64,000 bases of DNA. Origin: Bacteroidota bacterium (GTDB taxonomy: Bacteria > Bacteroidota > Bacteroidia > UKL13-3). The translations under genes and the position numbers were made by a program. Position 1 is the stretch's first letter; every line of letters starts with the position of its first letter. The notes beneath the pieces are model-generated. The model was not told where the DNA came from and did no database searches. It saw only the letters and a list, made by a program, of their open reading frames with translations. The DNA lies in the NCBI GenBank assembly GCA_027487835.1, contig JAIYCU010000028.1:22930-86929 (forward strand). Reading direction: 5' to 3'. This document shows, in pieces, positions 432 through 50,948 of the stretch.

Positions 432-1112
432 TTATTTCTTTAAGTAAATATATAGGCCCACTTGCAAAAAATCTCTACCTGTTTCGTCATTAATTTTATA
501 ATCAAATTGGTGAAGGTATCCAAGCATCATTGCATAAGTAGAAGAAGGCCTGTACTGAAGGTTTGCTGAAATTCTATTGCGTTCAAAATAGGGTTCTCTA
601 TCTGTAAAAAATATTTCATTGCTTGCTGTTACAACAAACTGCTTTTGGCCATCCATCAACTTTCCGAAAGGATAAGAAACGGAAAGTCTATACCTAAACC
701 TATTGCGATAGCCATTACTGGTAAAGCGCATTTCTGAACGATAGCGTTGTTCAACCTTAAACTTTAAAACGGTTTGGTTCAATACAAGTTGAGGCCATAA
801 TCTAAATTCATCATTGTTTTTAGGCACTACAAAATTTCCCCCTTCGCGGTATGTTTGATAAGTACCCGCGCCAAGTCCTATGCTTAAACCTGGTGCAACT
901 TTGTATTGAAATCCAGCCTTGGCTTCATAATAATGGAACTGATGGTAGAAGCCTAAAGAACGCAATTGCGATTCGGCAAAAACGCTCAACTTTGGCGTGG
1001 TTTGGTAGGAAAGACTAAGTATGTTCCAAGTTCCTAAACCGCTGTATTGCGCGTTGAGTAACTTAAAACTTATAGAAATCAGAAACAGTAATCTTGATTT
1101 TTTTTGCATCAT
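432..1112 (-). CDS. DUF2490-like outer-membrane beta-barrel protein
   Basis: The internal start MMQKKSRLLFLISISF gives a signal peptide. Alternating beta-strand pattern with an aromatic C-terminus. The ORF-track start at 1163 would overlap the terminator hairpin, so 1112 is preferred. Confidence 0.55.
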   Translation of the reverse strand: MMQKKSRLLFLISISFKLLNAQYSGLGTWNILSLSYQTTPKLSVFAESQLRSLGFYHQFHYYEAKAGFQYKVAPGLSIGLGAGTYQTYREGGNFVVPKNNDEFRLWPQLVLNQTVLKFKVEQRYRSEMRFTSNGYRNRFRYRLSVSYPFGKLMDGQKQFVVTASNEIFFTDREPYFERNRISANLQYRPSSTYAMMLGYLHQFDYKINDETGRDFLQVGLYIYLKK

Positions 1113-1162
1113 AAAGTTTGATAGTAACAATTTATAATGTCCATTGTTCTTCTTCAATACCA

Positions 1163-1199
1163 AAAAGAGGCTGTTTCAATAATTGAAACAGCCTCTTTT
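1163..1199. terminator. rho-independent terminator hairpin (aaaagaggctgtttcaa / ttgaaacagcctctttt), bidirectional
   Basis: Perfect 17-bp inverted repeat. It is followed by a T-tract on the minus strand, directly downstream of the 1230..1673(-) gene. Confidence 0.75.
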
Positions 1200-1229: not shown

Positions 1230-1673
1230 TTAGAAAAATTTTGACACATTGCCTAACAATCCACCAAGATCACCAGCATTACCACCAGCAAGGGAACCTA
1301 AAATGCCTTGCATACTAAAGCTATCATCGTTTGGATCATTGGTTTTCTTAGACAAGCTGTTCATTACAATTGGAAGTAAGTTGTTTACAATTCCTTCCGA
1401 CTTGCTAGGTTCAATTCCAAACTTACTTGAAATTAGGTTTGCCACATGACTACCCATGTTAGACATTTCCAATCCATTAGCACTTGCACCATTTGAAATT
1501 AAGCTAGTGATACCTTCTAAACTTCCACCACCAGCAAGGTACTTTAAATGATCCATGATTCCTTCTGCAGTGGTATTAATTACTGCATCATTGTTTTCAT
1601 TCGGGACGTCGCTGTTGTTAATGATGGCGTCTGAGGCGTTTTCTTTTACAAGATTAATCAGTTGTTCTAACAT
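1230..1673 (-). CDS. hypothetical Gly/Ser/Asn-rich protein
   Basis: 147-aa ORF followed by an intrinsic terminator. No recognisable domain. Confidence 0.5.
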   Translation of the reverse strand: MLEQLINLVKENASDAIINNSDVPNENNDAVINTTAEGIMDHLKYLAGGGSLEGITSLISNGASANGLEMSNMGSHVANLISSKFGIEPSKSEGIVNNLLPIVMNSLSKKTNDPNDDSFSMQGILGSLAGGNAGDLGGLLGNVSKFF

Positions 1674-1780
1674 ATTTTTTTTACTTTGATATTCTACATC
1701 TTCTAATTACCACCAAAGGGTACCCATAAAATGTAGGAATAATTTATTTATAAAGTAAATATAGAAATTAAAATGGTAAT

Positions 1781-4700
1781 TTATTGGCTTACCATAATTT
1801 TCTCAGTATAAATTTCAGAGCCAATTTTTATGTTCACAAAATATAAACCTGCAGGCATTTGATGTTTGTGATTAGTAAAAATTAATCCCCCCTTATTTGA
1901 CAAAGTAAACTCTTCCATTACCTGGCCCATTATATTAATTACAGTAACCTGGGCTGGAGCCTCTTTTTCAAGCGTATTAATTGATAAGGTAAAATTATCA
2001 TGCGAAGGATTTGGATAAATTTCCAAAACATTCATTGGCAATTTATCGGTTTCAACCATTTCTTCTAATTCCATGTTTTGGCCCGACTTATTTAAAGTGG
2101 TTGTTCCATTTAAAACAAATGTTTTAGCTGATCCTGTTCCGCAATTGTTAATGGCTTCCACTCTTAAGGTACCCGACCTAAATAAATTTCCAAATGTTAA
2201 AGATAGGGTATCTGTTGTGGTGGTAATTACATTTCCTAATGCAGTGCCAGAATGAGCGGTAACATTTGTAGCAGGAATAGTCCATTTATAAGAAATCAAC
2301 TCACTTCCATTTGTTACACTTGCCGTGTACCTAACCCTTGTATTTTTAATAGCGGCACCATTGCTTGTAACTTTATAAACTACTGCCTTGTCTGTTTTTA
2401 TAGGCACTCTAAATGTCGACGCAAACCCCGCGTTATTAAATGGCTTTACCGAAATGAAGCCAGAAGTAAATAATGAATCAAAAACAACACCTATGCTGGT
2501 AGCAGTTGAAGAAACCACTTTTAGACCCGTTATTCTTGCAGTATCGTAACCTGCAATGGCTGAATCTCCAATTCGAGAAATCCTTGAACCTTTTGGAAGA
2601 ATATATTGATAACCCAAGTTCCTAACAGGTGTTGCCTCAACGGTAAAATCAAATTCTGAGCTTATACCCGAATTTACTTTAATTGGGCAGGCATTAGTTA
2701 AAACTGGAATCGCACGAATCACAGCATTATTTGACAAATTAATGGTTGGCGATTGAGAAAGCACAAAGTTTTGATTATTTACAATTTTGGCTACCACAGT
2801 TCCTTCTCTCAATAACCCTGTGCCAGAAACCACACTTAATAGCATCCCTTCAGATAATCCAGCAGTGGTTGACACGGTAACAAAAGTGGCAATATTTGAT
2901 GCGCCAGGTGCTGAGGTATAAGCTTCAAACTTATTTTGAGGAACTATGTAAGCATTAAGCACCGACCCAGCCGAAACATTTGAAGTCATGTTGTTTTTAA
3001 GCCTAAACTGTGTAGCATTTACAATTGAGTCAACCGTGTTGGATACTCCAATTATTCCAGCGCCTGATTTTAATCTTATAATGTCTCCTACCTTCAAGCC
3101 CAAAGTGTTGGTAACATTTACAATTTTTCCATTTGAACCTACACCCACAGTTGAAGTCCATGACGGATTGCCAAGGTTATAATTAGGATTTGATATAAGA
3201 TAGTTTATTCTAAAACCAGGCAAGGTCTTCGAAATTCTTACAGAATCTCTTGGAGAAAAACTATTAGAAACTGAACTCTGGGCATTGCAATAAATATACT
3301 TTGGTTTAGCAATAGTAGAAACAAACTTAACAGGATCAGTAAACCTAACTGCTAAAGTTCTAGTACCTTGTCCTGAAACAATCAACACGCCTGTAGGTAC
3401 TGTCCAATTGTAATAATCTGCATTGGGAACATTGGCACAAGTTAGACTTAACGCAGTAGTTGAGCTTGCTGTCCCAATTTCAATTGAATCTTGATTGATT
3501 ACCAAAGGATTTAGGGAAATTGGAGAAATTGTCATTGCAAGTAGTTGCCCACCTTCTACTAACTCGCTTGTTGTAGCATAATGCGCTTGACTCACAAACA
3601 AAAACTTTCCTGAACCTAAAATATTCCTCATATCAATAACCCCTGAGGCTTCTTCTTCTTGAGTCAAAAAGTTAGTTCCTCCAATTCTAAATCTAGTAGA
3701 ATCATGTTCAGCAAGCTGCAACAATTGGTCGGTAACAATATTATAAACCCAAGTTTTACTTAGGTGGGCATTGTTGCCAGCATTTTCCTGAATTATAATC
3801 CTACCCAGCGTATCAATGACAATATTGTCCATCATTTTGATTCCTTCTGTTCCATCTAAAACGGCTGTGATGGTTCCACCAAATTCAGGATTTCTGATAT
3901 TTGTAAATCTAAGTCGATATAACCTGCTAGGATTGCTAAAGGTATTTGAAGTAACAAAATAAAAATCGGCAGGAGTTTTAGGATCCCAAGCACCATCTTC
4001 TGGTTGTAAAAATTTAGTTACGCCTTGGGCATTACTCACAAGCTCAATACCAGCACCTGTTGAATCTTTCACAATTCCTAAGTCAACCATAGTAAAATTA
4101 GTATTAGGCGCAGGGAAGCTTCCATTTAATTCTTGGCTAAGTCCTGTAACTTTTACGGCAAATAATTTTCCATTTGTTAAACCAGCCTTTTCAATGGCAG
4201 AACCAGAATCTATTTTGTTACCAGAATAAAAATAGACTTGGCCTCCCATTTCATTGTCTAGGCCAGCAACTATTGTTCTTTGCCCTCTTGAAGGACAAAC
4301 CACCACATTCTCCCAATTTAATTTACCCAAAAAAGGAAGTTCCACGGTAGTATCTGCATTATCTCCTGTTAATACATGTGCAAAGGCTCTTCCTTCAGCG
4401 CCATTTTCTTCTCCACTTAATAAAATTCTGTCTAGCGTACCAAAAGTACTAGAGGAATTATATAAGGCCGATATAACGGGTAAATCTGCTGAACTCAATT
4501 TGCCAAATCCCATTGGCATTGGACTAGCCGAATCATATAAATCATAGCTTTGGGTTGCGCTGTTCCAAAGCTTTACTTTTTGGATCAAATCTGAACCACT
4601 TTCTATAGTTAAATCTGATTTGTTGATTATCCACTTTGAAACAAAAGCACCTGTTGAGCCATGCGCCCTAGTAATTCCTTGTGCACTTCCTAGTTTGTGG

Positions 4701-7114
4701 TTCATTAATAAAGTGAAGGTGCCATTGTTGTTATCATAAGCCCCTAAACCATCTGGTATGCCGACCATTTTATATCCACCAATTGCCTCTCCAACAGTTA
4801 GCACAGAAGCCAAACTTACTTGAGCGTTGCTAGCAGTTACATAATTTGTTACCGCCAAATTTCTAGTAACTGTTATCGTATATATTTTCACAGTTACGCC
4901 ATCTTCTGCTGTTACTTTTACTTCAATAGTATTGCTTCCGACATTTAATAAAAGCATCCCAGAAATTGTTTCATTTTCTAAATTTCCATATGCACCACCA
5001 TTGATTCTAACTTGAATGGTTGCACTGTCTTGTGATAAAGTTGGTGTAACTTTAAATCCTTTAAAGGCATTAGGTACAGTGCAGGTATAGCTTTGGTTCG
5101 AACCTAAAAAATTAGGGGAAAGATTTAAGCTATTAGGCACTAAATTTACTAGGTTTGCATCATTAGAAAAAACCCTAGTGATGTTCAAAATATAGGTTCT
5201 GGTGCTAATTCCGTCTTCAGCAGTTACACGTAAATAAAAGGTATTTAAACCATTTATTAATGCAAAAGTATCAGAAGGTTCACCACTAACAATTGGGTCA
5301 AAACTGATATTATTTCTGCTAATCTCAATTAAGGCATTGGTGTCGGAAATGGTTGGGGTTATGAGAACACTAGTTGCCATTAGCTCAGCAGCATAAGTAG
5401 AAGTTAAGGGAGAAAAACTTGGAGAAATAGCTCCTGTATTTAGCGACAAGTTATTTAAATTGGCATTTGCAGAAGGAATAGCAAAGTAAGCTGCGTGATT
5501 GTTTTCAATGGTTTGAATTTCAGTATTTGAATAGATATGCGTAAACAAAAGCAACTCATTCAATTTACCCGTATAAAAAACTTGGCCATTCGCAGCCACT
5601 TGGTTGGCGCCAATGGCCAAACTGCTCACAGCGGTTCTTGTTCCTGTATTTAAAGTAGCATTTGCCTCCAATGCATTGCGTGATGCGAAAATATTCGCAG
5701 CACCATTGCTTGAGTTTCTAGTAAAGGAATGGATTTTTGAGGCGGCATTATTACAGATAACATTTCCTGCTGTAGAAACATCACCCAAACCAGCACCGCC
5801 ATTCCCAGCTGTAAATTTGTTGTTGTAAATTCCATAGGCAAAATCGCTCGTGGTTCCGTTTTGGGTAGCACCCAGCAAACCATTCATGTTATGCCATGAA
5901 GCAGCGGCACCACTAGAATTATTTACACTCGTTGCATTATAAACCACGGTTCCACTTAAGTTAGTATTGAAACTACTGGTAGTTATGGTGAGAAACTTAT
6001 TTCCAGAAAACTGAAGACTGGGTTTAAGGTTATTTAAAACAATATCTCCTGCGCTAATAGCAATTGGTTGATTGCTTGTATTTGCTTGAAAGGCATTTCT
6101 ATTGCTATTCCCACTTTGATCATACCAAATTGCCACAGTTGCTGTGGTACTGCCCGAAACCAAAGAATTTAACTCATTACTTGTTACAGGAGAAATAGCA
6201 GTATCATAAGTTCCCAAAACAGCAGAAATATTTGAATTAAGCGAAAAATCTTTTGTTACACTATCAGGATATACATCATAAAAATTACCACCAATGTTAA
6301 CTCTTAATAAGGGGCCAGTATAAGTGGATGAAAGTAACCTTAGCGCATAAGACCCTTGTGGGAGTGAAGTTTCTGGTAAGCCAACAAAATTTAAGGCATT
6401 TAATCTTACTACAGAGATTGAATAGATTTTGATGGTTGTTCCATTTTGCGCAGTTACCTTAACTTGTATGTTATTGGTACCATAATTAAGTGCCAAAGCA
6501 CTTGAAGGGTTTCCGCTATTTACGGTGGCATAAGCCCCATTGTTTACTCTAACCTCAATGCTTGCATTGGCTTGGGCCTTTGTGGGTGTAACCGTAATGC
6601 TGCCAGTTGAACTCACAACATTAGTAACATAACTTAGCGTATTTCTGCCAAAACTTGGAGCAAGTGCACCAGAACTTATGGTTAAAGTATTTAAATCTGC
6701 ATTGGCAGATTGTATTGTATAGCAGAATGAACCTCTGTTCATTAAAGTATCACCACCGTTGCTTGAACCCGTTAAAACAGTGCCGCCCCCGCCCGAGGCC
6801 GTGATTGTCCAGGTAGGTGTGTTGTCATTATTGGTTCCGTTTGTGCTTACCCAAAAAGTGAAGGGTCCATTGTTAGGAGCAGTACCTGAAGCTACATAAG
6901 TAGATGAAGTTGAGTTTGGACCCATGGTATGAACCACATTACCCGCTAAATTTCTAATTTCACAATAGGTTTCATCATAATAGCTTGATCCACTAAGAGA
7001 AATTGAGTAGGTAGTTGTACCGCATTGGGCAAAGGCAGTATTTCCTTGCCATTGGATTACAAAAAGAAAGGCAATAACTAAGCTTTTTAAGGTATTTTTC
7101 AAAGATGGTTTCAT
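1781..7114 (-). CDS. giant T9SS-secreted multidomain protein: signal peptide, 3 cadherin-like beta-sandwich domains, LamG/ConA-like lectin domain, beta-propeller phosphatase-like (PhoX/DUF839-like) module, Ig-like region, T9SS type-A C-terminal sorting domain
   Basis: N-terminal signal peptide. Cadherin-like beta-sandwich repeats (TLTISSGALAPSF..., LSLNTGAISPSFSP..., NLVPNSLNLSPNF...). LamG-like GKLNELLLF motif. About 430-aa module at aa 772-1200 paralogous to a module in the 7285..13998 gene. C-terminal YPNPSHDNFTLS...GLYFVNIKIG matches the T9SS type-A tail. Confidence 0.85.
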   Translation of the reverse strand: MKPSLKNTLKSLVIAFLFVIQWQGNTAFAQCGTTTYSISLSGSSYYDETYCEIRNLAGNVVHTMGPNSTSSTYVASGTAPNNGPFTFWVSTNGTNNDNTPTWTITASGGGGTVLTGSSNGGDTLMNRGSFCYTIQSANADLNTLTISSGALAPSFGRNTLSYVTNVVSSTGSITVTPTKAQANASIEVRVNNGAYATVNSGNPSSALALNYGTNNIQVKVTAQNGTTIKIYSISVVRLNALNFVGLPETSLPQGSYALRLLSSTYTGPLLRVNIGGNFYDVYPDSVTKDFSLNSNISAVLGTYDTAISPVTSNELNSLVSGSTTATVAIWYDQSGNSNRNAFQANTSNQPIAISAGDIVLNNLKPSLQFSGNKFLTITTSSFNTNLSGTVVYNATSVNNSSGAAASWHNMNGLLGATQNGTTSDFAYGIYNNKFTAGNGGAGLGDVSTAGNVICNNAASKIHSFTRNSSNGAANIFASRNALEANATLNTGTRTAVSSLAIGANQVAANGQVFYTGKLNELLLFTHIYSNTEIQTIENNHAAYFAIPSANANLNNLSLNTGAISPSFSPLTSTYAAELMATSVLITPTISDTNALIEISRNNISFDPIVSGEPSDTFALINGLNTFYLRVTAEDGISTRTYILNITRVFSNDANLVNLVPNSLNLSPNFLGSNQSYTCTVPNAFKGFKVTPTLSQDSATIQVRINGGAYGNLENETISGMLLLNVGSNTIEVKVTAEDGVTVKIYTITVTRNLAVTNYVTASNAQVSLASVLTVGEAIGGYKMVGIPDGLGAYDNNNGTFTLLMNHKLGSAQGITRAHGSTGAFVSKWIINKSDLTIESGSDLIQKVKLWNSATQSYDLYDSASPMPMGFGKLSSADLPVISALYNSSSTFGTLDRILLSGEENGAEGRAFAHVLTGDNADTTVELPFLGKLNWENVVVCPSRGQRTIVAGLDNEMGGQVYFYSGNKIDSGSAIEKAGLTNGKLFAVKVTGLSQELNGSFPAPNTNFTMVDLGIVKDSTGAGIELVSNAQGVTKFLQPEDGAWDPKTPADFYFVTSNTFSNPSRLYRLRFTNIRNPEFGGTITAVLDGTEGIKMMDNIVIDTLGRIIIQENAGNNAHLSKTWVYNIVTDQLLQLAEHDSTRFRIGGTNFLTQEEEASGVIDMRNILGSGKFLFVSQAHYATTSELVEGGQLLAMTISPISLNPLVINQDSIEIGTASSTTALSLTCANVPNADYYNWTVPTGVLIVSGQGTRTLAVRFTDPVKFVSTIAKPKYIYCNAQSSVSNSFSPRDSVRISKTLPGFRINYLISNPNYNLGNPSWTSTVGVGSNGKIVNVTNTLGLKVGDIIRLKSGAGIIGVSNTVDSIVNATQFRLKNNMTSNVSAGSVLNAYIVPQNKFEAYTSAPGASNIATFVTVSTTAGLSEGMLLSVVSGTGLLREGTVVAKIVNNQNFVLSQSPTINLSNNAVIRAIPVLTNACPIKVNSGISSEFDFTVEATPVRNLGYQYILPKGSRISRIGDSAIAGYDTARITGLKVVSSTATSIGVVFDSLFTSGFISVKPFNNAGFASTFRVPIKTDKAVVYKVTSNGAAIKNTRVRYTASVTNGSELISYKWTIPATNVTAHSGTALGNVITTTTDTLSLTFGNLFRSGTLRVEAINNCGTGSAKTFVLNGTTTLNKSGQNMELEEMVETDKLPMNVLEIYPNPSHDNFTLSINTLEKEAPAQVTVINIMGQVMEEFTLSNKGGLIFTNHKHQMPAGLYFVNIKIGSEIYTEKIMVSQ

Positions 7115-7239
7115 TTGCTTGGGTAGTGCTAAATAAATTGGTAAAAAGTGCTTCTAAAATAAAGTAGTAAAAATAGTTAATTTAAACCTAGAATAAGGAT
7201 TACTTTAATTATTAAACTATTAAGTTATTTCTAACAAAA

Positions 7240-7267
7240 AAGCCCGCCAACTTTCGTTGGCGGGCTT
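7240..7267. terminator. rho-independent terminator (agcccgccaac-tttc-gttggcgggct) flanked by A/T tracts
   Basis: 11-bp GC-rich stem with a 4-nt loop. T-tract on the minus strand, directly downstream of the 7285..13998(-) stop. Confidence 0.8.
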
Positions 7268-7284
7268 TAAAAAAATACTTAGAA

Positions 7285-10200
7285 TTAGTTATTTACAATA
7301 ATCTTAATTGTGTTCAAGGTTGAACCAATTCTTACTTGTACAAAATATAATCCTGGTGTTAGGTTATGGTTTATTTCGCCCAATACCACTCCGTTGTTAT
7401 TATCAAAAGTGTACTCATCAACCACTTGTCCCATCATGTTTAAAATTGAAACGTTAGCAGATGCTTCCTTTTCTTCAGCAATAACGGATACAGTAAAGTT
7501 AGTTTGATTTGGATTTGGATAAACTGTCAACTTGTTGATTGATAAATTTGTAATCTCGATTTCTTCTATCAATTCAATCTCTTTACCAGCTTTGTTTAAA
7601 GAAGTTGTTCCATTTAAAGTAAATGTTTTTGAAGTACCAGTTCCGCAACTGTTCATCGCTTCAACTCTCAAACTTCCAGATTTAAACAAGTTTCCAAACA
7701 TTAATGAAAGCGTGTCTGTGGTTGTAGTTACAACATTAGCTAGAGCAGAACCCGATAGTGGCGTTACATTTACCGCAGGAATTGTCCATCTGTAACCCGT
7801 TACTTCGCTACCATTGGTAACACTCGCTCTATACCTTACAGCGGTATTTTTGATTGCTGCACCTGTGCTAGTTACTTTGTAAATAGATGCTTTGTCATTT
7901 CTAACGCTAACTCCAAAACTTGCACCAGTTCCAGCATTGTTGTAAGGAAACACCCTAATTGTGCGTGTTGTTAAAGAATTATCAAATACAACTCCGATTG
8001 AATTTGATTTAGTAAATACATCTAATAGAGCTACAGTTGCAGTATCATAACCAACAATGGTAGAATCTCCAATTCTTGAAATTCTTGCTCCATTAGGTAA
8101 CATAAATCTATAACCAATATTGTTAACTGGAGTGGCAACCACTGAGTAATCAACCTCTGAAGTAAAACCAGTAGTTACACTAATTGGGCAAATATTAGTT
8201 AAAACTGGGGTTCCAGCTAAAACTGCATTATTGCTTAAATTTACAATTGGTGTTAATGAAAGTACAAATTTGGTTGAATCAATTATTTTAGAAACAACTG
8301 TACCTGCTTTTAAGGTTCCTGCTCCTGAAACTAAATTTACAGACATTCCTTCTGCTAATCCAGCTGTGCTTGTTACAGTAATAATATTTAAGGCATTGGT
8401 TGCACCTGGAGCAGAAATATACCTAGCAAATGTATTTTGAGGTACAATGAACGACTTCAAGGTAGCACCAGCAGAAATTCCAACCGTAACATTGTTTTTC
8501 AAACGGAATTGTGTTGTGTTCAAAATTGAATCTACTGTATTGTTTAAACCTGTGTTTCCAGTTCCAGCAGTAACCTTAACTAAGTATCCAACTTTTAATC
8601 CAGCTGTACTTGAAACGTTCACAATATTAGCTGAAGAACCAGCAGTTGCAGTTGACATCCATTCTCCTTTGGTTAAGCTCATGTTTGGATTTCCAATAAT
8701 GGCCGCAATGGTAAATAATGGTCTAGTTTTAGTAATTCTTACACTATCTATTTTTGATGAAATTCCTGAAAGTAATATTCTTGCTTGACAAGTAATTACT
8801 CTTGGCTTAGCAACTGGGCTAGAGAATTTAGCAGGATTAGTAAATCTGACAGTTAAGTTAGTAGTTCCTTGTCCTGAAACAATAACAACTCCAGCAGGAA
8901 CTGTCCATCTATAATCATCGGCATTTGGAACCGCAGCGGCAGTAACATTTACTAAACTGTTTGAATCGATTACACCAATTTCAATAGAATCTTGAACAAT
9001 GGCAACATTTCCAACTGATAATTCTGAAATGCTCATGGCAAGCAATTGACCACCTTCTACCAATTCAGTAGTAGTTGGGTAATGTGCTTGGTCTACAAAT
9101 AAAAACTTGCCTTTACCTAAAATATTGTGCATGTCAATGATACCAGATGCTTCTTCATCTTGGGTCAAGAATTTAGAACCACCTGTAAGGAATCTAGCAG
9201 TATCATGACTAGCAATTTGAATTAACCTATCGCTTTCAATATTGTACATCCAAGTTTTACCTAAATGTGCTTGGTTACCAACATCTTCTTGAATAAAGAT
9301 ATTTCCAAAGCTATCGATAGCCATATTATCCATCATTTTAGCACCTTCAGTTCCATCTAAAACTGCTGTGATGGTTCCACCATCTTCTGGTTTAGCAATT
9401 GATTTGAAAGATAATCTCCATAAACGGCTAGGGGTTGTGAACGAAGCAGTGGTTAAGAAATAAAAGTCATTTGTTTTTCTTGGGTTCCATGCACCATCTT
9501 CAGGGCGTAAGAATGCAGTAACAGCATTTGCCGCACTTCTGCTATCTAAACTAGCTCCTGTTGAATCACGAACAATTCCTAAATCAACCATGGTAAATGG
9601 TGTATTGGCAGCAGGAATGCTTGCAGTAACTTCTGTAGCTAAACCAGTAACTTTTACGCCAAACACTTTACCATTATTCAAACCTGCTTTGTCAATTTCA
9701 GTTCCAAGCTTGGTTTTTGTACCAATATAAAAATACACTTGTCCGCCTGTTACATCATCTAATCCTGCCACAATGGTTTTATTTCCTTTTGCTGGACTAG
9801 CCACTGCATTTTCCCATGAGTATTTACCTAAATATGGTAACTCATAACTTGTTCCAGCATTCGTACCTGTTAAAATATGCGCAAATGCTCTTCCTTCTAC
9901 ACCTGATTCTTCTCCACTTAAGAAAATGCGCTCTGCAGTTCCTGTGGTGCCATTTAAAAATGCAGTCACTGGAGGTAAATCAGCAGAACATAAACGACTA
10001 ATACCAGCAGGCATTGGCGAACCAGCATTATACGTATTAAATGTTTTTGCAATTGGATCCCACAATTTAACAGTTGTAATTAAATCAGAACCACTTACAA
10101 CTGATAAGTCAGACTTATTAATAACCCATTTTGATATAAAAGCACCTTTTGAACCATGTGCTCTAACAACTCCTAATGAATTGTTTATTTCATGGTTCAT

Positions 10201-13200
10201 CAATAAAGTAAAGGTACCATTGTTATTATCATATGCTCCTAAACCATCAGGTATACCTGCCATTTTGTATGAACCAATGCCGTCACCAACTGTTAAAATT
10301 GAAGTAATGCTTACATCGCTTCTACTTGTTGTAACATATGGTGTTTGAGAACTGTTTGGACCAGCACCCATTCTGAAAATACCTTCTTGTCTTGAATTTA
10401 ACAATTGAATACGTCTATCCGCAGTAATTAAAGTATCACGTACGTTATAAGGATTTGTTGAATGATGCGTTCCCATATATTCTGCAAATGCATCTTGTTC
10501 TGAACCAATAGCCACAAAAGTTGCAATACCTGTCGCTTTAATTGCTGTATCCAAATTTACTCTATTAGAAATATTAGCAGGGAATGGATAATTATCTCCA
10601 CCTAAAGGAGAACCAATAGACAATGGATTAGCCAAGAAGTTTAAAGTAACAATCTTGTACACACGTGAAGTGTCACCGTGCAAATATCCTCCCATTACCA
10701 ATGTATCAAGGATATTTCCTAAAGAATCTGTGATGGCTAAAGATTGAATTCTATTACCTATTGTTTTTGTAGTATCATAACTAAAGGCAGCACCTCCAAT
10801 TTGTGGGAACTGACCCGGTGTAGCGGCAGGTTTTGTTGCAGCAACACCATGCTCTAGGATTCTTTTTAAACCAGCAGCATTTGTTGTTACAATCACAAGT
10901 CCATTATTGAAACGTAAAGAGTTTTCAATGTCTAATTGAGAAATATCTCCGCGTGCTTTGCCAGCCGAAGGATTAGCCAAGGTATTTTCAAAAACTGTAT
11001 TCATGCCAACAGCATTTATATTTCCGATAGCAGAACGAATACCTCCCCCATTTTTAATTGAAACTTTTACCTGGTTATCATATTGTTTAGCATACCATAA
11101 GTTTGCATCTGCCGATAAGTTACCAAAGTTAGTTTCTTCTGTTCTTACAAAATTTCTTCTTCCTTCTAAAAACACATTCGACTTACCAAATTTATTGCCG
11201 TCTTTGTTATTAATAACAGATGCAATTGCAGAAGTTAAGGTTCTAACGTTTGCACCTTTGCTACCAGCAGTGAAACCAGCAGTATAAGTACCATATAAAG
11301 CAGTAACCATTGCAGTATCAGCAGCATAAGCTCCATTTATAGTTGAATCTAGAAAATTTGGAAGTAATACACCTAATGAGTCAAAATCACAGACAAAACG
11401 ACCCACGTATTTCCACTCAGCCGTTGTGTTTAAAATGGCCAATGGCTGGTTATCATTATTAACTGTCAAGATCGGATATCTATCAGCAACTGTTGTTCCA
11501 ACTCTAATTCTATCATTACCATCTGCGCATAATGAATGTGAACCACCTGCTATTATAATGTCTACACCTTTTAATAATGGGGCTAAAGCTTTCTCATTTG
11601 CCAATTGTTGTAAGTGACTCATCAAAATAATTTTGTTGATTCCCATTGCTCTTAATGAATCAATCACTGGTTGTAATACTGAGGCTAATGCCGGCATGTT
11701 ATCTGTACCACCATTAATTACTGTGGTAGCTCCTGGTGAAGAAATAGAGGCCAATACTTGTGTGGTTGCCCCTACAATTCCAATTCTCTCGCCATTAGTT
11801 TCAATTATCGCAGAAGGAGCAATCCCTTTCTTTTGGCTATTAGCAGTAATATTAACAGAAGTTTTAAAACTATCTACCACTAATCTTTGCGCAGTAGTTA
11901 AGTAGCTTAAGTTAGCATCTGCAGCAAAATTTAAATTTGCACTCAAGTATGGAAACTGAGCACCAATCCAACGCTTGTCTGCACCATTGCTTCTAATGTC
12001 TACCCCAATAATACTATTCACTTCAGAAGTTCCTAAATCAAACTCGTGGTTACCAAAAGCTGAACCTTGGAAACCCATTATATTCATCATAGCAATATCA
12101 GTTCTACCAATTGCTGGTCTTATAGCTTGTGTTCCTGCATAATAACTACTAGCAGTATTACGCAAAGGAGTTTGCATACTTGCATCTTCTCCTGCACTTA
12201 AAAACGGACTAGGAATAAAACAATCTCCAGAAGCTAATTTAACTGTGTTAGGATAAGTACCTTCCAAGGTGTCTAATACAGCGGCAAAGTTTGGCGCATC
12301 AATGGGTGCATCAAGTCCACTTTCCATATCTGAAGCATGTAAAACTTGTAATTGGAAAGCACTACGTGAATTCACTTGGAAAATAGCAACGGTTCCACTT
12401 ACCTCATTTGATAATAAGATTAAATCTTTTCCATTTGGACTTTCATTTCTAGGAACAAAAACAATTCCTTCTGGACCTAAATCACCACCTGAATTTAATC
12501 CTGGTGTTTGAGAAAAGTTACGTGTATTGATATATTGAACAAAATAAGGATTATTAGGATTAGTGATATTATAGACCATAATACCGCCAATTCTTTCTAA
12601 ACCAACAAATGCATAAGTACTGTCTAGTATTTTTCCAATAGTTACTGATTCTGGTTCAGGACCTTTATTATCACTTCTATCATCTAAGGCATTTGTATTA
12701 TGTCCAGCATTAAAGTTACTAGGGAACATAGCCAAAGTTCTTTGTTCAAAATCGTCTTTGCTATCCCAAACCAAAGCACCCGTTGTGCCATTCCAAATAG
12801 AAAATGAACGGGATCCAAACGTAAATATACTGTCAATCTTACCATCACTGTTAAAATCACCATAGCGGTTGGTAACATTTAATCTACCTAATGCTCCTAA
12901 AGCTCTCAATGCTGTTACATTGGAAACTCCTCCAAATTTAACGGTATCCAGCACATAGGAAGTAGCGCCAAGACGCACTTCTTCATTGTTTGCAGCACCC
13001 CAATCAGCTCTTGCATCCCCTTCATTAGCAGTTACTAAAAAAGTTTGATTTCCTACATTGTAGCTTGAAATCGCATCAGGTTGATACATTCCAAATACTG
13101 GCCAATTAGCTATAGCAGCTTGTGCCGTAGTATTATTTAAACTTCTATCCGATGGATCGAAACCATTTCCAGTTAAATTATAGTTTTTAAAACCTAATGG

Positions 13201-13998
13201 TAATAGGGAAGTAACGGTTGCCGAATTAATATTAACTACAGCGATTGCGTTGTTTTCTTGGCAAGTAACCCAAGCAGTTAAATTATCGTCAGAAACAGTG
13301 ATATATTCAGGTTCTAAATCTTCTGCAACAGTTGAGTTTCTTAAAAAACTACCTCCTGATTGAATTCTTCCTGTAATTTTTATTTTAGAATCAATTACAG
13401 CAGGAGAATTGAAAGCTGTAAAACCAGCAGTTTGAACATTCGCTTGCGTTAAACCTGCAAAACCACCAGAAACATTAATGATAGAAACTGAACCTTCTGG
13501 GTCGATGGTGTATCCATTGTTTGGTTCGCCTTCGTTAGCAACCAAAACTCTATTACCATTAGGCGTAAAAACAACATTATCAGCATTTGCACCAACTTTT
13601 ACTTTACTAATAAAGTTTCCATTGATGTCCATAAATACAATGCTACTTGCATTTGTTTTGCCATTTGAGTCCAAAATAGCAGCCGCAATAATTCCTTTTT
13701 TGTTGCAAGCAACAGAGGTAATGTCACTTCCATAAGGAGCCATTGAAATAGAACTAATTTGAACTGGGCTAGCAGGATTAGCTAAATTAACAATCCTCAA
13801 AGAATTGTCAGGACCGTTTGTAACAAACATCCTTTTAGAACTTGGATCGTAAGCTGAAATTTCAGCTACACCTCCGTCTTGGTTGTAAGTTCCTATGGAG
13901 TATCTTCCAAGGAATTGCGCATTGATTTGCGCGTTAACTTTTGTGCCTGCAATTGTTAAGAGCAAGACAAACAAAAATTTGTAAAAAGATTTATTCAT
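7285..13998 (-). CDS. giant T9SS-secreted multidomain phosphoesterase: choice-of-anchor-I-like beta-propeller, metallophosphoesterase/5'-nucleotidase (UshA-like, N and C domains), PhoX/DUF839-like beta-propeller module, Ig-like region, T9SS type-A C-terminal domain
   Basis: Signal peptide. N-terminal region aa ~25-545 has a choice-of-anchor I pattern. LQVLHASDMESG metallophosphatase start at about aa 548. 5'-nucleotidase C-domain motifs (FGNLSADANLWY, IKNGGGIRS). Module at aa 1230-1660 paralogous to the 1781..7114 protein. C-terminal LTVYPNPNQTNFTVS...GLYFVQVRIG T9SS tail. Confidence 0.85.
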   Translation of the reverse strand: MNKSFYKFLFVLLLTIAGTKVNAQINAQFLGRYSIGTYNQDGGVAEISAYDPSSKRMFVTNGPDNSLRIVNLANPASPVQISSISMAPYGSDITSVACNKKGIIAAAILDSNGKTNASSIVFMDINGNFISKVKVGANADNVVFTPNGNRVLVANEGEPNNGYTIDPEGSVSIINVSGGFAGLTQANVQTAGFTAFNSPAVIDSKIKITGRIQSGGSFLRNSTVAEDLEPEYITVSDDNLTAWVTCQENNAIAVVNINSATVTSLLPLGFKNYNLTGNGFDPSDRSLNNTTAQAAIANWPVFGMYQPDAISSYNVGNQTFLVTANEGDARADWGAANNEEVRLGATSYVLDTVKFGGVSNVTALRALGALGRLNVTNRYGDFNSDGKIDSIFTFGSRSFSIWNGTTGALVWDSKDDFEQRTLAMFPSNFNAGHNTNALDDRSDNKGPEPESVTIGKILDSTYAFVGLERIGGIMVYNITNPNNPYFVQYINTRNFSQTPGLNSGGDLGPEGIVFVPRNESPNGKDLILLSNEVSGTVAIFQVNSRSAFQLQVLHASDMESGLDAPIDAPNFAAVLDTLEGTYPNTVKLASGDCFIPSPFLSAGEDASMQTPLRNTASSYYAGTQAIRPAIGRTDIAMMNIMGFQGSAFGNHEFDLGTSEVNSIIGVDIRSNGADKRWIGAQFPYLSANLNFAADANLSYLTTAQRLVVDSFKTSVNITANSQKKGIAPSAIIETNGERIGIVGATTQVLASISSPGATTVINGGTDNMPALASVLQPVIDSLRAMGINKIILMSHLQQLANEKALAPLLKGVDIIIAGGSHSLCADGNDRIRVGTTVADRYPILTVNNDNQPLAILNTTAEWKYVGRFVCDFDSLGVLLPNFLDSTINGAYAADTAMVTALYGTYTAGFTAGSKGANVRTLTSAIASVINNKDGNKFGKSNVFLEGRRNFVRTEETNFGNLSADANLWYAKQYDNQVKVSIKNGGGIRSAIGNINAVGMNTVFENTLANPSAGKARGDISQLDIENSLRFNNGLVIVTTNAAGLKRILEHGVAATKPAATPGQFPQIGGAAFSYDTTKTIGNRIQSLAITDSLGNILDTLVMGGYLHGDTSRVYKIVTLNFLANPLSIGSPLGGDNYPFPANISNRVNLDTAIKATGIATFVAIGSEQDAFAEYMGTHHSTNPYNVRDTLITADRRIQLLNSRQEGIFRMGAGPNSSQTPYVTTSRSDVSITSILTVGDGIGSYKMAGIPDGLGAYDNNNGTFTLLMNHEINNSLGVVRAHGSKGAFISKWVINKSDLSVVSGSDLITTVKLWDPIAKTFNTYNAGSPMPAGISRLCSADLPPVTAFLNGTTGTAERIFLSGEESGVEGRAFAHILTGTNAGTSYELPYLGKYSWENAVASPAKGNKTIVAGLDDVTGGQVYFYIGTKTKLGTEIDKAGLNNGKVFGVKVTGLATEVTASIPAANTPFTMVDLGIVRDSTGASLDSRSAANAVTAFLRPEDGAWNPRKTNDFYFLTTASFTTPSRLWRLSFKSIAKPEDGGTITAVLDGTEGAKMMDNMAIDSFGNIFIQEDVGNQAHLGKTWMYNIESDRLIQIASHDTARFLTGGSKFLTQDEEASGIIDMHNILGKGKFLFVDQAHYPTTTELVEGGQLLAMSISELSVGNVAIVQDSIEIGVIDSNSLVNVTAAAVPNADDYRWTVPAGVVIVSGQGTTNLTVRFTNPAKFSSPVAKPRVITCQARILLSGISSKIDSVRITKTRPLFTIAAIIGNPNMSLTKGEWMSTATAGSSANIVNVSSTAGLKVGYLVKVTAGTGNTGLNNTVDSILNTTQFRLKNNVTVGISAGATLKSFIVPQNTFARYISAPGATNALNIITVTSTAGLAEGMSVNLVSGAGTLKAGTVVSKIIDSTKFVLSLTPIVNLSNNAVLAGTPVLTNICPISVTTGFTSEVDYSVVATPVNNIGYRFMLPNGARISRIGDSTIVGYDTATVALLDVFTKSNSIGVVFDNSLTTRTIRVFPYNNAGTGASFGVSVRNDKASIYKVTSTGAAIKNTAVRYRASVTNGSEVTGYRWTIPAVNVTPLSGSALANVVTTTTDTLSLMFGNLFKSGSLRVEAMNSCGTGTSKTFTLNGTTSLNKAGKEIELIEEIEITNLSINKLTVYPNPNQTNFTVSVIAEEKEASANVSILNMMGQVVDEYTFDNNNGVVLGEINHNLTPGLYFVQVRIGSTLNTIKIIVNN

Positions 13999-14117
13999 AA
14001 ATATGTAAAAATTTATGACCCAAATAAACCTAATGTGTGTTACTGAAAGTTCCCTTAAATATTAACTAAACAACATTTAAAAGTAAACAACAATTTCTTC
14101 ATATATAAATCTACTTT

Positions 14118-16424
<2,307 letters not shown>

Positions 16425-22064: not shown

Positions 22065-23603
22065 TTAAAGTTTTTGAATTGTTCGTACTTCACTAATTGT
22101 TAGGGCTCTGTTGTAAAACCTAAATTCATCTAATGCACCATTAAAAGGAACTCCTGAATTTGGAAATTCAGACTTTCCTATTACAATATCATAACCTGGT
22201 GCACCATTCCACAGATTCGAATAATTGCTTGGAAAATTCCAAAGCTCAATTCCATCCAAATACATCTTTAATTGATTACCAGATTTTGAAACTGCATAAT
22301 GATGCCAAGTACCAATATTGTTATTTACTCCACTTGTATTACCACCACCGTTACTACCTATGTAGTAACCGAAATTATTATTGGTAGAACTTAAAAGGAT
22401 TGCATACGCAACATTGTATAAAGTTCCAGTATTACCACCTTTATAAATTATTGTTTGCCATGATGTACTTTTATTACCATCTGCAGTCCCTGTTCCATCA
22501 CCATTGTCTGCCAAACGTGAATCAAATCTTGCCCAAAATGTAATTGTATAATCAGTATAGCTTGATGAAATACCAGAAGATCCCGCTAATTTAATTGAAC
22601 CCGGAGAGTTTAATCCTCCAAATTTGTAAGCTGCGTTGGATGTGCCATTTCTATCATTTGTTAGCGTGGCACCATTAACTAAACCATTGTAATTTGCACT
22701 TACAGTATTATTAGCATTACCCGTGAAAGGTAAATTTATTAATAAACCATTTTGAATATTATCGTTTGCATTAGTTACAACCGGAAACGCAACATAACAT
22801 TCTCTACTAATAACTGCAGTTGGTAAAAATGAATAGGGTATCCAAAAAAATCCTTGGTCTTGGACACTGGCTCCCCATGAATTTTGTATTTTAAACGCAC
22901 TTCTATCATTGTCATATCCAACAATTGTTACTGCATGTCCACCTAAATTTTGACCAGAAAAAGAATTGTAAACAGTATTAGTTTGAAGATTTTCATAAGC
23001 ATTAATTGCAATAAAAACTGGATACCCAGCAAGCAAACAAGATTTAATTCTGTTTGTATTGTTCTTATCAACTAATTTCCAACTATGTAACTTGTTTTTT
23101 GCTGCGGCAGTAATTTGTGCAGATGTTGGTTGGGAGGAACAGTCTGGGTCTGAGTATGGCATTTCAGCCAAGGTACATACTCCTTTATTTTTAAGTATCG
23201 AAAAATTATCTAGGTATGAGGAACCACCATATTTGCAATTATTACCTTGTCTTATCTGATTGTATAAGAATGATGGACTGCATAATTGAGAATTATCATT
23301 ATAATTAGTTCCGTTATTTTTGTTCATAAAATAACTCATACCTGCATAGGCTGTAGAAAATGAACAACAAGAACCAATGCCTCCTTGGTTTCCTACCGGG
23401 GGCATATTTAAACTGAAACTATTTGGCATTGTGCCCATGTCAAAATCTGAAATATTATCAATCTGGTCTAATTCTTTATCGCTTGCTTGGACAAACCCAA
23501 AGCCCTCCAATTGCTTTTTTAATTGTTTTTCACAAGAGGTAAAACCTACAATAATTGTAGACATTAAAAGGAAAAAGAATGAAAATTTCTTTATTTTAAT
23601 CAT
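22065..23603 (-). CDS. papain-family (C1) cysteine peptidase lipoprotein with C-terminal LamG/concanavalin-like domain
   Basis: Lipobox GFTSC. Catalytic Cys context QGGIGSCCSFS, His in GGHAVTIVGYDND, Asn in IQNSWG. C-terminal LamG-like motif NGALDEFRFYNRALTISEV. Confidence 0.8.
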   Translation of the reverse strand: MIKIKKFSFFFLLMSTIIVGFTSCEKQLKKQLEGFGFVQASDKELDQIDNISDFDMGTMPNSFSLNMPPVGNQGGIGSCCSFSTAYAGMSYFMNKNNGTNYNDNSQLCSPSFLYNQIRQGNNCKYGGSSYLDNFSILKNKGVCTLAEMPYSDPDCSSQPTSAQITAAAKNKLHSWKLVDKNNTNRIKSCLLAGYPVFIAINAYENLQTNTVYNSFSGQNLGGHAVTIVGYDNDRSAFKIQNSWGASVQDQGFFWIPYSFLPTAVISRECYVAFPVVTNANDNIQNGLLINLPFTGNANNTVSANYNGLVNGATLTNDRNGTSNAAYKFGGLNSPGSIKLAGSSGISSSYTDYTITFWARFDSRLADNGDGTGTADGNKSTSWQTIIYKGGNTGTLYNVAYAILLSSTNNNFGYYIGSNGGGNTSGVNNNIGTWHHYAVSKSGNQLKMYLDGIELWNFPSNYSNLWNGAPGYDIVIGKSEFPNSGVPFNGALDEFRFYNRALTISEVRTIQKL

Positions 23604-36726: not shown

Positions 36727-36729
36727 TGA

Positions 36730-37524: not shown

Positions 37525-37736
37525 TGTTTGAAAAGGAAAAGTTACTGCATTCGGGTCAAAGATTCCATAGTTTGGATTTGACTTTTTGTAATAAACTTGC
37601 TTTATGTTTGTTACAAATTCTGTTTCTCTTTCACCGACTGGAAGTAGGTTTTCACGTAATGTTATTGTTGCATTACCTTGTGATTCTTTGTCCAGCCTGT
37701 GAACTATTATTGAGTGTAATTCTATATTATAAATTT

Positions 37737-38081: not shown

Positions 38082-38145
38082 TTACTCGTCATAATATAGT
38101 TTGTCAAAATACCTTTTTTCTCGATGTATTGGCTCGGCTTTTTAA

Positions 38146-41232: not shown

Positions 41233-41261
41233 TAATCTTTTGTTTTTAAAAAGTTATTTTG

Positions 41262-42556: not shown

Positions 42557-42604
42557 TGCTACAAGTTGGGCTTTTGTCTGTCTGAATATATGTTGTTTCA
42601 AATG

Positions 42605-49337: not shown

Positions 49338-50948
49338 TTAATACTTAATTACCTTCACCACCTTTGCCGCGGCAAAAGCATCTTGAACCTTGAGAAAGTA
49401 ACAACCATTGTGGAGGTGGTTTAAATCAATGGCATTGTCTTGGGCTGAAAGCAAACCCGCTGCCACCTTATTGCCATTGCTCTGAAACAATTCATAGGAA
49501 ATTTCTGTGGCAGGCCAATTTTCAAAGGTAAGTTGAACCTTGCCACTGGTAGGATTTGGATATAGGTTGAAGTTAGGCTGCACACCTTCTCCCTCGTTCC
49601 CAATTTTAGCCAGGTATTGTGCATACATATACCCACAATCCAAAGTTTTATTGCCCACTTCTATTTTAAAGTTAAAAGAACTGCTTACATACAAGTTGTT
49701 CCATTGGTCTTCGAATATCCATACCGCATATGGCACATTTGGAAAGAGATAAGAATCGATTTCTTTTCCATTTTGTGCTTCATAGCTTACCCGGCAAAGG
49801 CCATAATAGTGATGGTACTCTAGGCTAATGGAATCCCATATATCTGTTAGCCTACCATACACCACAGGGTTATCCTCTGAATTTGTCATAATCTTAGTCA
49901 TGTAAAATTCAGTGGTATCCCTTCTATATCTTGGGGTGGGTTTTATCCAGCTTACCTTTCCTTGGCTGTTTAATTTTGAAACAAAGTAAGCGTAGCTTGA
50001 AAAATTATACAGCAGACTGTCATTTAAGAAAGTTTCACCTTCTGAGGAGCCTAATAAATAGGCGTCTCCCTTTGTATCAAAACATAAATCATGCACATAA
50101 TTAAAATCTTTACCACTTAAAATACTGGTGTATTGAGATTGCCCATTTGCCTGCAATTTGAGGATAGAAAAATCTATGCCCCCTTTGGTAATAAAGGTAT
50201 CTCCCTCCCAAGTAAGTGCTTCTTGAAATTGCCCAAAGGCAAATAAATCGCCGGTAGGCGTAACTTTTATTTTAGGACAAAAAACCATCCCTTGCAAGGT
50301 GCGCACCCAAAGCAATTGGCCCTGTGTATTAAATTTTGAAATAAAAAATTTAGACCCACCTGTTTTAGCACCATACAAAACCGTATCCCCTATGGACAAA
50401 GGATACTCAAAAGAGCCGGCTAAATAGCAGTTAGAAGAATCATCCAATAAAACTTGATAGGCATAATTGCCGCTAGCACCCCCAATTGCTTTTGCCCATT
50501 GCGCTTTGCCATTGGCACTATATTTTGTTAGAAAAATATCTGTAGCGCCACCATTGGCAGTTAGGGTTATGTTATCAAAAGAAAGGGAATTGTAAAAAAA
50601 GCCAGTTATAAAAAGTTCTCCTTGTGCATTGGCGCAAATACCCTGACTTTGCAGCGCAGCGCCATAGCTGTTAGAGGAAGTTGCCGCCCACACCAATTGC
50701 CCTTTGGTATCATACTTTGCAGCAAAAACATTTTCTAGGCCATTTGAAGACAAGCTTACCCCATCAATCGTTTTCCAAAGCTGGTGGTAAACACCCCCAG
50801 CATAACTATTGCCGGCCTTATCTACATAAAAAGAACCTGATTGAGCACCCCAAGTTTGTTTTAGCCAACTGGTTTGTTGCGCTTTTACCACTTTTGAGGC
50901 AACAAAGGCAAGGTGCAAAAAAAACAAAAAATGAGCAGCTGTTTTCAT
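49338..50948 (-). CDS. T9SS-secreted beta-propeller (SBBP-repeat-like) protein with type-A C-terminal sorting domain
   Basis: Signal peptide. Repeated G..Y..G...D..GN.YV.G blades. C-terminal LYPNPTSGKVQL...GCYFLKV T9SS tail. Confidence 0.75.
   Translation of the reverse strand: MKTAAHFLFFLHLAFVASKVVKAQQTSWLKQTWGAQSGSFYVDKAGNSYAGGVYHQLWKTIDGVSLSSNGLENVFAAKYDTKGQLVWAATSSNSYGAALQSQGICANAQGELFITGFFYNSLSFDNITLTANGGATDIFLTKYSANGKAQWAKAIGGASGNYAYQVLLDDSSNCYLAGSFEYPLSIGDTVLYGAKTGGSKFFISKFNTQGQLLWVRTLQGMVFCPKIKVTPTGDLFAFGQFQEALTWEGDTFITKGGIDFSILKLQANGQSQYTSILSGKDFNYVHDLCFDTKGDAYLLGSSEGETFLNDSLLYNFSSYAYFVSKLNSQGKVSWIKPTPRYRRDTTEFYMTKIMTNSEDNPVVYGRLTDIWDSISLEYHHYYGLCRVSYEAQNGKEIDSYLFPNVPYAVWIFEDQWNNLYVSSSFNFKIEVGNKTLDCGYMYAQYLAKIGNEGEGVQPNFNLYPNPTSGKVQLTFENWPATEISYELFQSNGNKVAAGLLSAQDNAIDLNHLHNGCYFLKVQDAFAAAKVVKVIKY

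Follow-up and report, generated by a model that had tools for sequence, protein, structure and literature searches.

Tandem giant T9SS cargo proteins of a Bacteroidota bacterium with different heads, a common stalk and PhoX-like propellers, one of them with an altered central site

A 64-kb stretch of a single contig from an uncultured Bacteroidota bacterium of freshwater (JAIYCU010000028.1; the whole stretch of 64,000 nt is termed the window) contains two adjacent genes for giant proteins that carry different N-terminal heads on a common C-terminal part. We named the proteins P1 (1777 aa) and P2 (2237 aa). With a probability of roughly 60%, we read them as a pair of separately transcribed cargo proteins of the type IX secretion system (T9SS) that derive from an old duplication of a 1020-aa cassette, whereby P2 would release phosphate and P1 would have been remodelled. 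Confidence in the anatomy and the evolution of the pair is high. The phosphatase function, predicted from sequence, is proposed with moderate confidence and the exact role of P1 with low confidence. Relatives bearing the stalk were taken from a scan of one genome per species.

1781..7114, minus strand: P1 gene, 1777-aa T9SS cargo (open reading frame (ORF), translation, Pfam)
7285..13998, minus strand: P2 gene, encoding signal peptide, choice-of-anchor I domain, 5'-nucleotidase, PhoX-like propeller, stalk and C-terminal sorting domain (CTD) (ORF, translation, Pfam, NCBIfam)
7239..7268, minus strand: intrinsic-terminator-like hairpin with a 13-bp stem, 8 GC pairs and a T-run, 17 nt past the P2 stop (terminator scan)

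An old tandem duplication

Both ORFs are intact according to ORF calling and translation. Starting at about aa 767 of P1 and aa 1237 of P2, a single colinear BLASTP match runs to both C-termini. In a global alignment the shared part comprises 1023 columns with 1020 aligned residues and 60% amino acid identity, a similarity far above chance expectation. The first-pass annotation had described a C-terminal half of about 1000 aa common to both proteins in the same order, which is well matched by this result. The domains also follow the order claimed there, except for a LamG domain without direct Pfam match. P1 consists of signal peptide, N-terminal domain, Cadherin-like domain, ConA/GH54-like domain, two further Cadherin-like domains, a diverged PhoX-like propeller, stalk and CTD.

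Compared as DNA, the two genes show 66.2% identity along 2778 nt of the shared part. Locally the identity rises to 70-77%, and the longest exact word common to both genes is 18 nt. Two antisense ORFs on the plus strand (97 aa at 4254..4547 and 140 aa at 9926..10348) correspond only partially and are mechanical by-products. Hence the mirroring of antisense ORFs that had been noted earlier is seen in part, while the high nucleotide identity assumed to underlie it is not.

P1 and P2 are probably separate transcription units, because the terminator-like hairpin intervenes and P1 has an upstream region of its own (125 nt). The octamer TAGGTTTA is found upstream of both genes (window 7181-7188 and 14030-14037, minus strand). 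It resembles TAnnTTTG, the -7 promoter element of Bacteroidota. A sigma-70 promoter scan performed no better than on shuffles.

The two copies lie side by side in colinear arrangement, their starts being ~5500 nt apart, and several contigs of metagenome-assembled genomes (MAGs) break inside these genes. This could mean that one repeat-rich gene was misassembled into two or that a recent duplication is being kept similar by recombination or gene conversion. We consider either highly improbable given the 66% nucleotide identity and the 18-nt word; moreover both ORFs are intact and possess their own signal peptides, with a terminator in between. The independent contig L002 (E1_MAG_00012) shows the order LysR, KatG, 2228-aa gene, 1792-aa gene and DUF937 gene, matching the window with 82.6% nucleotide identity over 12.4 kb. 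With both genes intact and identically arranged in L002, the misassembly that had been named as a possible objection is ruled out.

Neighbour-joining trees of the propeller and of the stalk agree. In both, a P1 clade (window, L002, L007) is sister to a P2-type clade (window, L002, L003, L004, L005). As P1 and P2 orthologues form separate clades, the duplication is older than the split between these genomes, and homogenisation of the tandem copies is not evident. The low nucleotide identity, the short longest word and the separate clades argue for an old duplication and leave current recombination between the copies, judged plausible in the first-pass annotation, without support. Every domain is under purifying selection (dN/dS 0.05-0.23).

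Within the trees, P1 of the window branches outside the pair of L002 and L007. Between window and L002, dS amounts to 0.38-0.70 for P2 (window 7285-13998, L002 5054-11740), 1.0-1.9 for P1 (window 1781-7114, L002 11863-17241) and 1.1 for KatG. The low P2 value may be due to codon-usage constraint on P2 or to P2 having been exchanged between lineages more recently.

A PhoX-like propeller in both proteins

9004..10326, minus strand: P2 PhoX-like six-bladed propeller, aa 1225-1665, 441 aa (PF05787, AlphaFold (AF2) model, Foldseek, residue table)
3515..4831, minus strand: P1 PhoX-like propeller, aa 762-1200 (PF05787, substitution analysis)

The N-terminal portion of the shared part had been described as a beta-propeller phosphatase-like module, for which a comparison with PhoX/DUF839 was suggested. 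Profile search with Pfam family PF05787 supports the PhoX/DUF839 type by a small margin, yielding 25.0 bits for the P2 module and 26.3 bits for the P1 module at a cut-off of 24. The structure of the P2 propeller was predicted using AlphaFold, which gave a confident model from 37 input sequences (pLDDT 91.2, pTM 0.92). Foldseek was run against the PDB with the P2 module only. The top match is PhoX of P. fluorescens (3zwu_A, E 8.8e-18, TMq 0.68; 4a9v, TMq 0.70; E ~1e-17 for this pair of entries), and the next matches are generic six-bladed propellers with E-values of 5.6e-7 or weaker.

The module belongs to a large family with more than 5600 matches, the top ones being 58-67% identical. A typical member is 500-715 aa long and consists of signal peptide, PF05787 domain and T9SS tail; most carry a precomputed PF05787 match. 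A second, bridging family from Cytophagales (A3) is annotated as 'alkaline phosphatase PhoX' and always encoded beside a cytochrome c peroxidase gene. Both families are clearly homologous according to hhalign (probability 99.9, E 9e-36, 26% identity). A tblastn search against plasmids returned Bacteroidota PhoX-like genes and one Methylobacterium homologue, and no classical PhoX. Three Cytophagales plasmids (L023 1171-2613, L024 1261-2739, L025 265-1725) bear a PhoX-like gene for 480-492 aa followed by a cytochrome c peroxidase gene; one of these PhoX-like genes is annotated merely as 'hypothetical protein'.

Both families have 34 conserved columns in common, of which 20 are polar: D27, E46, C113, S114, E140, E172, N173, D191, Q196, R274, E276, D277, R301, D333, N334, E347, D348, D375, E392 and H415. 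According to the secondary structure of the model, each of the six blades contributes conserved residues at the start of its first strand (A) or the end of its second (B). Based on this placement they would lie on the same face and surround the central channel, the site of catalysis in propeller enzymes such as PhoX. PhoX binds two Fe3+, three Ca2+ and an oxo group and employs an unusual Cys thiolate as Fe3+ ligand (PMC4223295). The conserved ring including C113 may represent the PhoX metal-ligand set.

P1 and P2 could instead be mainly giant adhesins or structural surface proteins whose propellers bind or perform lactonase-, lyase- or phytase-type chemistry. Size and architecture indeed resemble T9SS adhesins (cadherin-like and PKD-like domains, FN3 in relatives), and the same stalk also bears beta-helix heads without a phosphatase-like domain. 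The second-tier Foldseek matches are paraoxonases, Drp35 lactonase and lyases, PF05787 is heterogeneous and no Pho-regulon context is seen. Nevertheless we regard this alternative as improbable. The E-value of PhoX in the structural search is ten orders of magnitude better than that of the next match, and the ~20 invariant polar residues including a Cys are typical of a catalytic multi-metal site. In P2 the propeller is coupled to a bona fide 5'-nucleotidase family module with conserved motifs (see below). Moreover a related PhoX-like protein of Flavobacterium is induced by phosphate starvation.

The propeller of P1 is remodelled at conserved positions

All 34 cross-family residues are kept in the propellers of the P2 clade, in L005, in L006 and in both propellers of L015 (see below). 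The P1 clade retains 28-29 of them. All three P1 orthologues (window, L002, L007) share five fixed changes, namely E46K, C113S, D191N, R274Q and T293S, while the respective positions are invariant in 43/43 other family members and in the second PhoX-like family. Three further changes (R111K, G158D, D390E) affect positions that are invariant in the window family only. D348N is restricted to the P1 copy of the window.

The 120 best database matches do not contain a single K.S or Q variant of the P1 type. Since the substituted positions are otherwise invariant in 43 members and a second family, P1 has seemingly diverged in function. With a dN/dS of 0.054-0.069 the propeller is at the same time the most constrained domain of P1. 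Fixed active-site changes combined with the lowest dN/dS of the protein are the signature of a conserved new function rather than of decay.

The first-pass annotation had assigned the same phosphatase activity to both proteins, with merely the targeting domains being different. An interpretation of this kind, i.e. equivalent active PhoX-type phosphatases that differ only in their targeting or accessory heads, is in line with both modules exceeding the PF05787 cut-off, with the number of cross-family residues kept in P1 and with the very strong purifying selection on its propeller. We consider it unlikely in view of the five fixed substitutions at positions that stay invariant even in a family of 26% identity, and of the absence of such variants from the database matches. 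One of them removes the single conserved Cys, and in PhoX a Cys serves as Fe3+ ligand (PMC4223295).

Stalk, sorting domain and export

7549..9003, minus strand: P2 stalk, aa 1666-2150, ~485 aa (two PF19408 matches, internal repeat)
2045..3514, minus strand: P1 stalk, aa 1201-1690, colinear with the P2 stalk (BLASTP, Pfam, alignment, repeat analysis)
7288..7524, minus strand: P2 T9SS type-A CTD, aa 2159-2237 (PF18962, TIGR04183)
1784..2020, minus strand: P1 T9SS type-A CTD, aa 1699-1777 (PF18962, TIGR04183)

The stalk starts with a PKD_6-like domain (PF19408), followed by two tandem repeats of ~70 aa, an Ig-like domain and a second PKD_6-like domain. The repeat was missed by BLAST self-comparison. 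Direct local alignment against shuffles detects it in both paralogues (z ~9). Taken singly, the pieces of the cassette (PKD_6-like units, repeat unit, CTD) are present in thousands of proteins. The complete stalk nevertheless turned up in only ~5 clusters when 1.84 billion representatives were searched exhaustively with a profile.

The assignment as T9SS type-A cargo made in the first-pass annotation is well founded. TIGR04183 scores 45.7 bits for P1 and 45.5 bits for P2 (cut-off 23), and PF18962 (Por_Secre_tail) gives 38.7 and 41.1 bits on the two proteins (cut-off 27). A profile of stalk and CTD matches the T9SS CTD chains 8glj_D and 8glk_D in the PDB. Both N-termini are hydrophobic and end with AFA|Q (P1) or VNA|Q (P2), as read from the translations. 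They represent Sec-type signal peptides, and a twin-arginine motif is found in neither of them.

Another likely secreted protein of the window (49338..50948, minus strand, 536 aa) ends in a T9SS sorting tail and is otherwise without Pfam domains. The presence of this further CTD-bearing gene suggests that T9SS is in use in the source genome.

P1 and P2 resemble other multi-domain T9SS type-A cargo of Bacteroidota by having a Sec signal, heads, Ig/PKD-like spacers and a C-terminal TIGR04183 domain. They differ from T9SS cargo in general in two respects. The complete stalk of 500 aa is limited to one freshwater lineage, and three phosphohydrolase-type modules per chain are found only in the lineage with this stalk. 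Domain shuffling as such is commonplace among T9SS cargo.

The head of P2 combines a choice-of-anchor I domain and a 5'-nucleotidase

13930..13998, minus strand: P2 Sec-type signal peptide MNKSFYKFLFVLLLTIAGTKVNA, without twin-arginine motif (read from translation)
12376..13878, minus strand: P2 choice-of-anchor I domain, aa 41-541 (PF22494, NF038117)
10354..12366, minus strand: P2 5'-nucleotidase/metallophosphoesterase module, aa 545-1215 (phmmer against PDB, PF02872, motifs)

A choice-of-anchor I propeller and a UshA-like 5'-nucleotidase had been proposed for P2, and both were recovered. The former is unambiguous with 456.6 bits for PF22494 (E 1.4e-136, cut-off 32) and 517 bits for NF038117 (cut-off 300). 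The latter matches the enzyme of T. thermophilus (2Z1A, E 8e-29) in three aligned segments and human CD73 (E ~1e-26) in phmmer searches of the PDB; PF02872 (5_nucleotid_C) is detected with E 3e-18. The motifs LHASDME, GD, GNHEF, SHL, GGSH and NGGGIR are present and kept in five orthologues.

The alignment of the middle part of P2 with the ecto-5'-nucleotidase/UshA family (2Z1A, CD73) covers the metallophosphatase as well as the 5_nucleotid_C domain. The P2 module differs by insertions of ~50 aa and by being fused between two propellers in a T9SS protein. Moreover the first metallophosphatase motif is DxE (within LHASDME) in all five orthologues instead of DxH, which is the norm in the family. 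This hints at an altered metal-ligand set in the choice-of-anchor-I-linked 5'-nucleotidase subfamily.

The head of P1 contains Cadherin-like domains and a candidate ConA-like sandwich

6695..7027, minus strand: P1 N-terminal domain, aa 30-140, behind the Sec signal peptide (aa 1-29); no Pfam match
6404..6688, minus strand: P1 Cadherin-like domain 1, best stretch aa 143-237 (PF12733)
5480..6403, minus strand: P1 middle domain, aa 238-545, 308 aa, ConA/GH54-like sandwich candidate (matches of homologues, CBM40)
4850..5479, minus strand: P1 Cadherin-like domains 2 and 3, aa 546-755 (PF12733)

The three cadherin-like domains predicted for P1 are found as three stretches matching PF12733 (117.4 bits). 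The N-terminal domain of ~110 aa shows no family match in Pfam. It is well conserved, with 79% identity to the orthologue in L007 and a dN/dS of ~0.09.

For the middle domain, which had been taken for a LamG lectin domain, the evidence is indirect. Pfam does not yield a match even at E 5, and only 16 homologues exist among 5.8 billion proteins. Laminin_G_3 is detected in 3/13 homologues and the GH54 catalytic sandwich (ArabFuran-catal) in 2/13. The profile of the domain weakly matches the CBM40 lectin domain of a sialidase (4c1w, E 0.008) over its C-terminal 125 positions. The AlphaFold model is poor (pLDDT 50.8) and unusable for a fold search. 'ConA-like sandwich' is hence a reasonable but unproven label.

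The same stalk carries at least four types of heads

The stalk was located in 21 loci. The habitats, where given in the titles, are ponds and lakes, in which phosphorus is commonly limiting. Most loci belong to Bacteroidota MAGs, and three contigs binned under other phyla are probably mis-binned. One of these, L015, is labelled as the cyanobacterium 'Vulcanococcus limneticus' and probably derives from Bacteroidota; other contigs are labelled 'Chitinophaga pinensis' and 'Methylacidiphilales'.

The combination of choice-of-anchor I and 5'-nucleotidase precedes the cassette in P2 and in L002-L004. In L015 (3599-11710, 2704 aa) the same head is followed by two tandem PhoX-like propellers (aa 1240-1669 and 1694-2129), both with the canonical residue set. 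The head of L005 consists of FN3, EPTP/NHL-type repeats and a Cadherin-like domain. In L008-L014 and L016-L020 stalk and CTD are located behind beta-helix heads (~1070-1097 aa), with Beta_helix_4 being detected in P0128. A stalk with CTD behind a different head is also encoded in L001 (10001-12580), and each of these MAGs has 2-3 stalk-bearing genes. The head of P1 represents a further type.

The stalk is fused to at least four head types, and in the course of evolution the cassette has been joined to heads more than once. The separation of the P1 and P2 clades together with further head types on the same cassette corroborates the earlier view of tandem paralogues that arose by duplication and N-terminal domain shuffling. 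Several MAG contigs terminate inside stalk-bearing genes; apparently, short-read assemblies tend to break at the shared cassette.

Proposed function of the pair

The data establish anatomy, fold, homology, age of the duplication, purifying selection and the differences at the active site. Beyond these we infer phosphatase activity, surface display, a phosphorus-scavenging role and the nature of the new function of P1. Both proteins would be exported via Sec, fold in the periplasm and be recognised by T9SS via the type-A CTD. T9SS would then attach them to the surface or release them, and the stalk would keep the heads away from the cell. P2 is most likely a surface multi-enzyme that liberates phosphate from nucleotides and other phosphomonoesters, with a nucleotide-specific binuclear phosphoesterase, a broad PhoX-type monoesterase and the choice-of-anchor I propeller in one chain. 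In P1 the propeller has presumably kept its fold, while the central site has lost Cys, two carboxylates and Arg and gained Lys. P1 would also have acquired its cadherin-like and ConA/GH54-like sandwiches. Rather than duplicating the phosphatase of P2, it most likely binds particles or polymers or is an enzyme whose metal or substrate preference has changed. Phosphorylated or anionic polymers may be bound by P1 and left unprocessed, or P1 may carry out another reaction.

More tentatively, the 1020-aa unit might be a portable surface-display chassis of one freshwater Bacteroidota lineage. After the duplication the multi-metal phosphatase site of P1 would have become a site for ligand binding, either non-catalytic or re-specified, and P1 and P2 would form a capture-and-hydrolyse pair for particulate or polymeric organic phosphorus. 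Capture would rely on the cadherin-like and ConA-like domains and the 'dead' propeller of P1, hydrolysis on the three-part phosphohydrolase of P2. If true, this would make P1 either the first pseudo-PhoX or a PhoX-fold enzyme whose metal site does without Cys.

Several observations weigh against a pair of which P2 releases phosphate. The PF05787 scores are marginal, and this family gathers paralogues that may not be PhoX (PMC12594817). PhoX was never reached when the PDB was searched by phmmer and with profiles, starting from the module, from a profile of the window family (A1) or from A3; the relationship of propeller and PhoX hence has to be considered remote. The assignment of the conserved ring as metal ligands is tentative. 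Canonical PhoX is exported via Tat together with its iron cofactor (PMC4223295), unlike P1 and P2 with Sec signal peptides and T9SS CTD. The DxE motif deviates from typical 5'-nucleotidases, and a literature search on the function of choice-of-anchor I domains was without result. The genes next to P2 encode KatG and a LysR regulator instead of phosphate functions, and pho or pst genes are absent from the 34 ORFs scanned in the 64-kb window. A Pho box of the E. coli type is not found near P1 or P2; the single match in the window (at 45619) compares to 4.4 expected by chance. Because the Bacteroidota consensus is not established, this absence is weak evidence.

Comparison with known PhoX-type proteins helps to place the module. 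It shares the six-bladed fold of PhoX (P. fluorescens 3ZWU/4A9V; PF05787/COG3211), its best structural match, has marginal membership in the Pfam family, and possesses a conserved ring of acidic residues, Asn and His plus one Cys in line with the Fe3+/Ca2+ thiolate site. On the other hand, identity in the structural alignment is ~11%, and sequence or profile searches do not link it to the PDB entry. The 441-aa module is embedded in proteins of 1777-2237 aa, whereas PhoX is free-standing with ~580 aa. The export route differs as well, and the P1 copy lacks the conserved Cys and four other conserved residues. Since Tat export does not apply and the PhoX ligand set is assigned by inference, 'PhoX-like' is the defensible label.

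Fjoh_2478 of Flavobacterium johnsoniae (Lidbury et al. 2020) is a PhoX-like surface lipoprotein of ~480 aa with a MauG-like partner, Fjoh_2477. It is among the exoproteins most strongly induced by phosphate starvation and conserves 9/10 PhoX active-site residues (PMC8115612). Like the window module it is a PF05787 protein of Bacteroidota apart from the classical PhoX clades, and it is surface-displayed and induced upon phosphate depletion. Family A3, homologous to the window module by virtue of the 34 shared conserved residues, exhibits a gene pairing of the Fjoh_2478/Fjoh_2477 type; A3 was equated with Fjoh_2478 by annotation and gene context alone. Identity is only ~26%. The window module is moreover part of T9SS cargo rather than a lipoprotein, and a MauG-like partner is absent from the window.

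Psip1 of marine picocyanobacteria is a PhoX-fold, Fe/Ca-dependent phosphatase with negligible sequence identity to PhoX (PMC11098088), demonstrating that divergent PhoX-fold propellers can be genuine high-affinity phosphatases. Compared by description only, it differs from the window family in that no conserved-domain match was reported for Psip1, whereas the window family touches PF05787.

Every building block of P1 and P2 stems from a known family. New are the lineage-restricted stalk cassette, the three-part (in L015 four-part) phosphohydrolase fusions and the conserved, site-remodelled PhoX-like paralogue. Much of the recycling of organic phosphorus is due to freshwater and marine Bacteroidota, and PF05787/DUF839 proteins are for the most part uncharacterised. 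The pair resembles a natural experiment with canonical and site-remodelled PhoX-like propellers side by side, both under strong purifying selection, and could reveal which residues of the Fe/Ca site are essential and which further uses the fold has. P2 provides an example of three phosphohydrolase-type modules in a single secreted chain, and the rare 500-aa stalk one of a lineage reusing it to display different heads. Phosphatase counts in metagenomes need care, as PF05787 matches include diverged copies like P1. Current views are not overturned; the pair is an instructive yet fairly ordinary case of domain shuffling.

Gene neighbourhood and other features of the window

14118-16400, minus strand: KatG-type catalase-peroxidase, directly upstream of P2
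16490-17428, plus strand: LysR-family (OxyR-like) regulator, divergent from KatG
1233-1676, minus strand: DUF937 gene, 105 nt downstream of P1 with no obvious terminator between
432-1163, minus strand: DUF2490 gene, after a strong hairpin (1163-1199) that trails the DUF937 gene

The adjacency of KatG and P2 was considered as a counterpart of the MauG-PhoX pairing. It is shared by the closest MAG (L002) only and not by L003, L004 or L015, for which reason a functional link was rejected. The order P1-DUF937-DUF2490 is kept in L007, and L002 has an additional ORF of 229 aa between P1 and the DUF937 gene. Scanning the window for Rfam families and tRNAs gave no match.

A possible defence island extends over window positions 35542-46393 on the minus strand and is flanked by several ORFs without Pfam match. 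It includes:

36730-37524, minus strand: NA37 nucleoid-associated protein
38146-41232, minus strand: Mrr_cat nuclease and NACHT NTPase, 1028 aa
42605-44995, minus strand: AAA_13/SMC-like ATPase, 796 aa

Furthermore the window encodes a likely secreted fusion of a papain-family peptidase (C1) and Laminin_G_3 with a length of 512 aa (22065-23603, minus strand).

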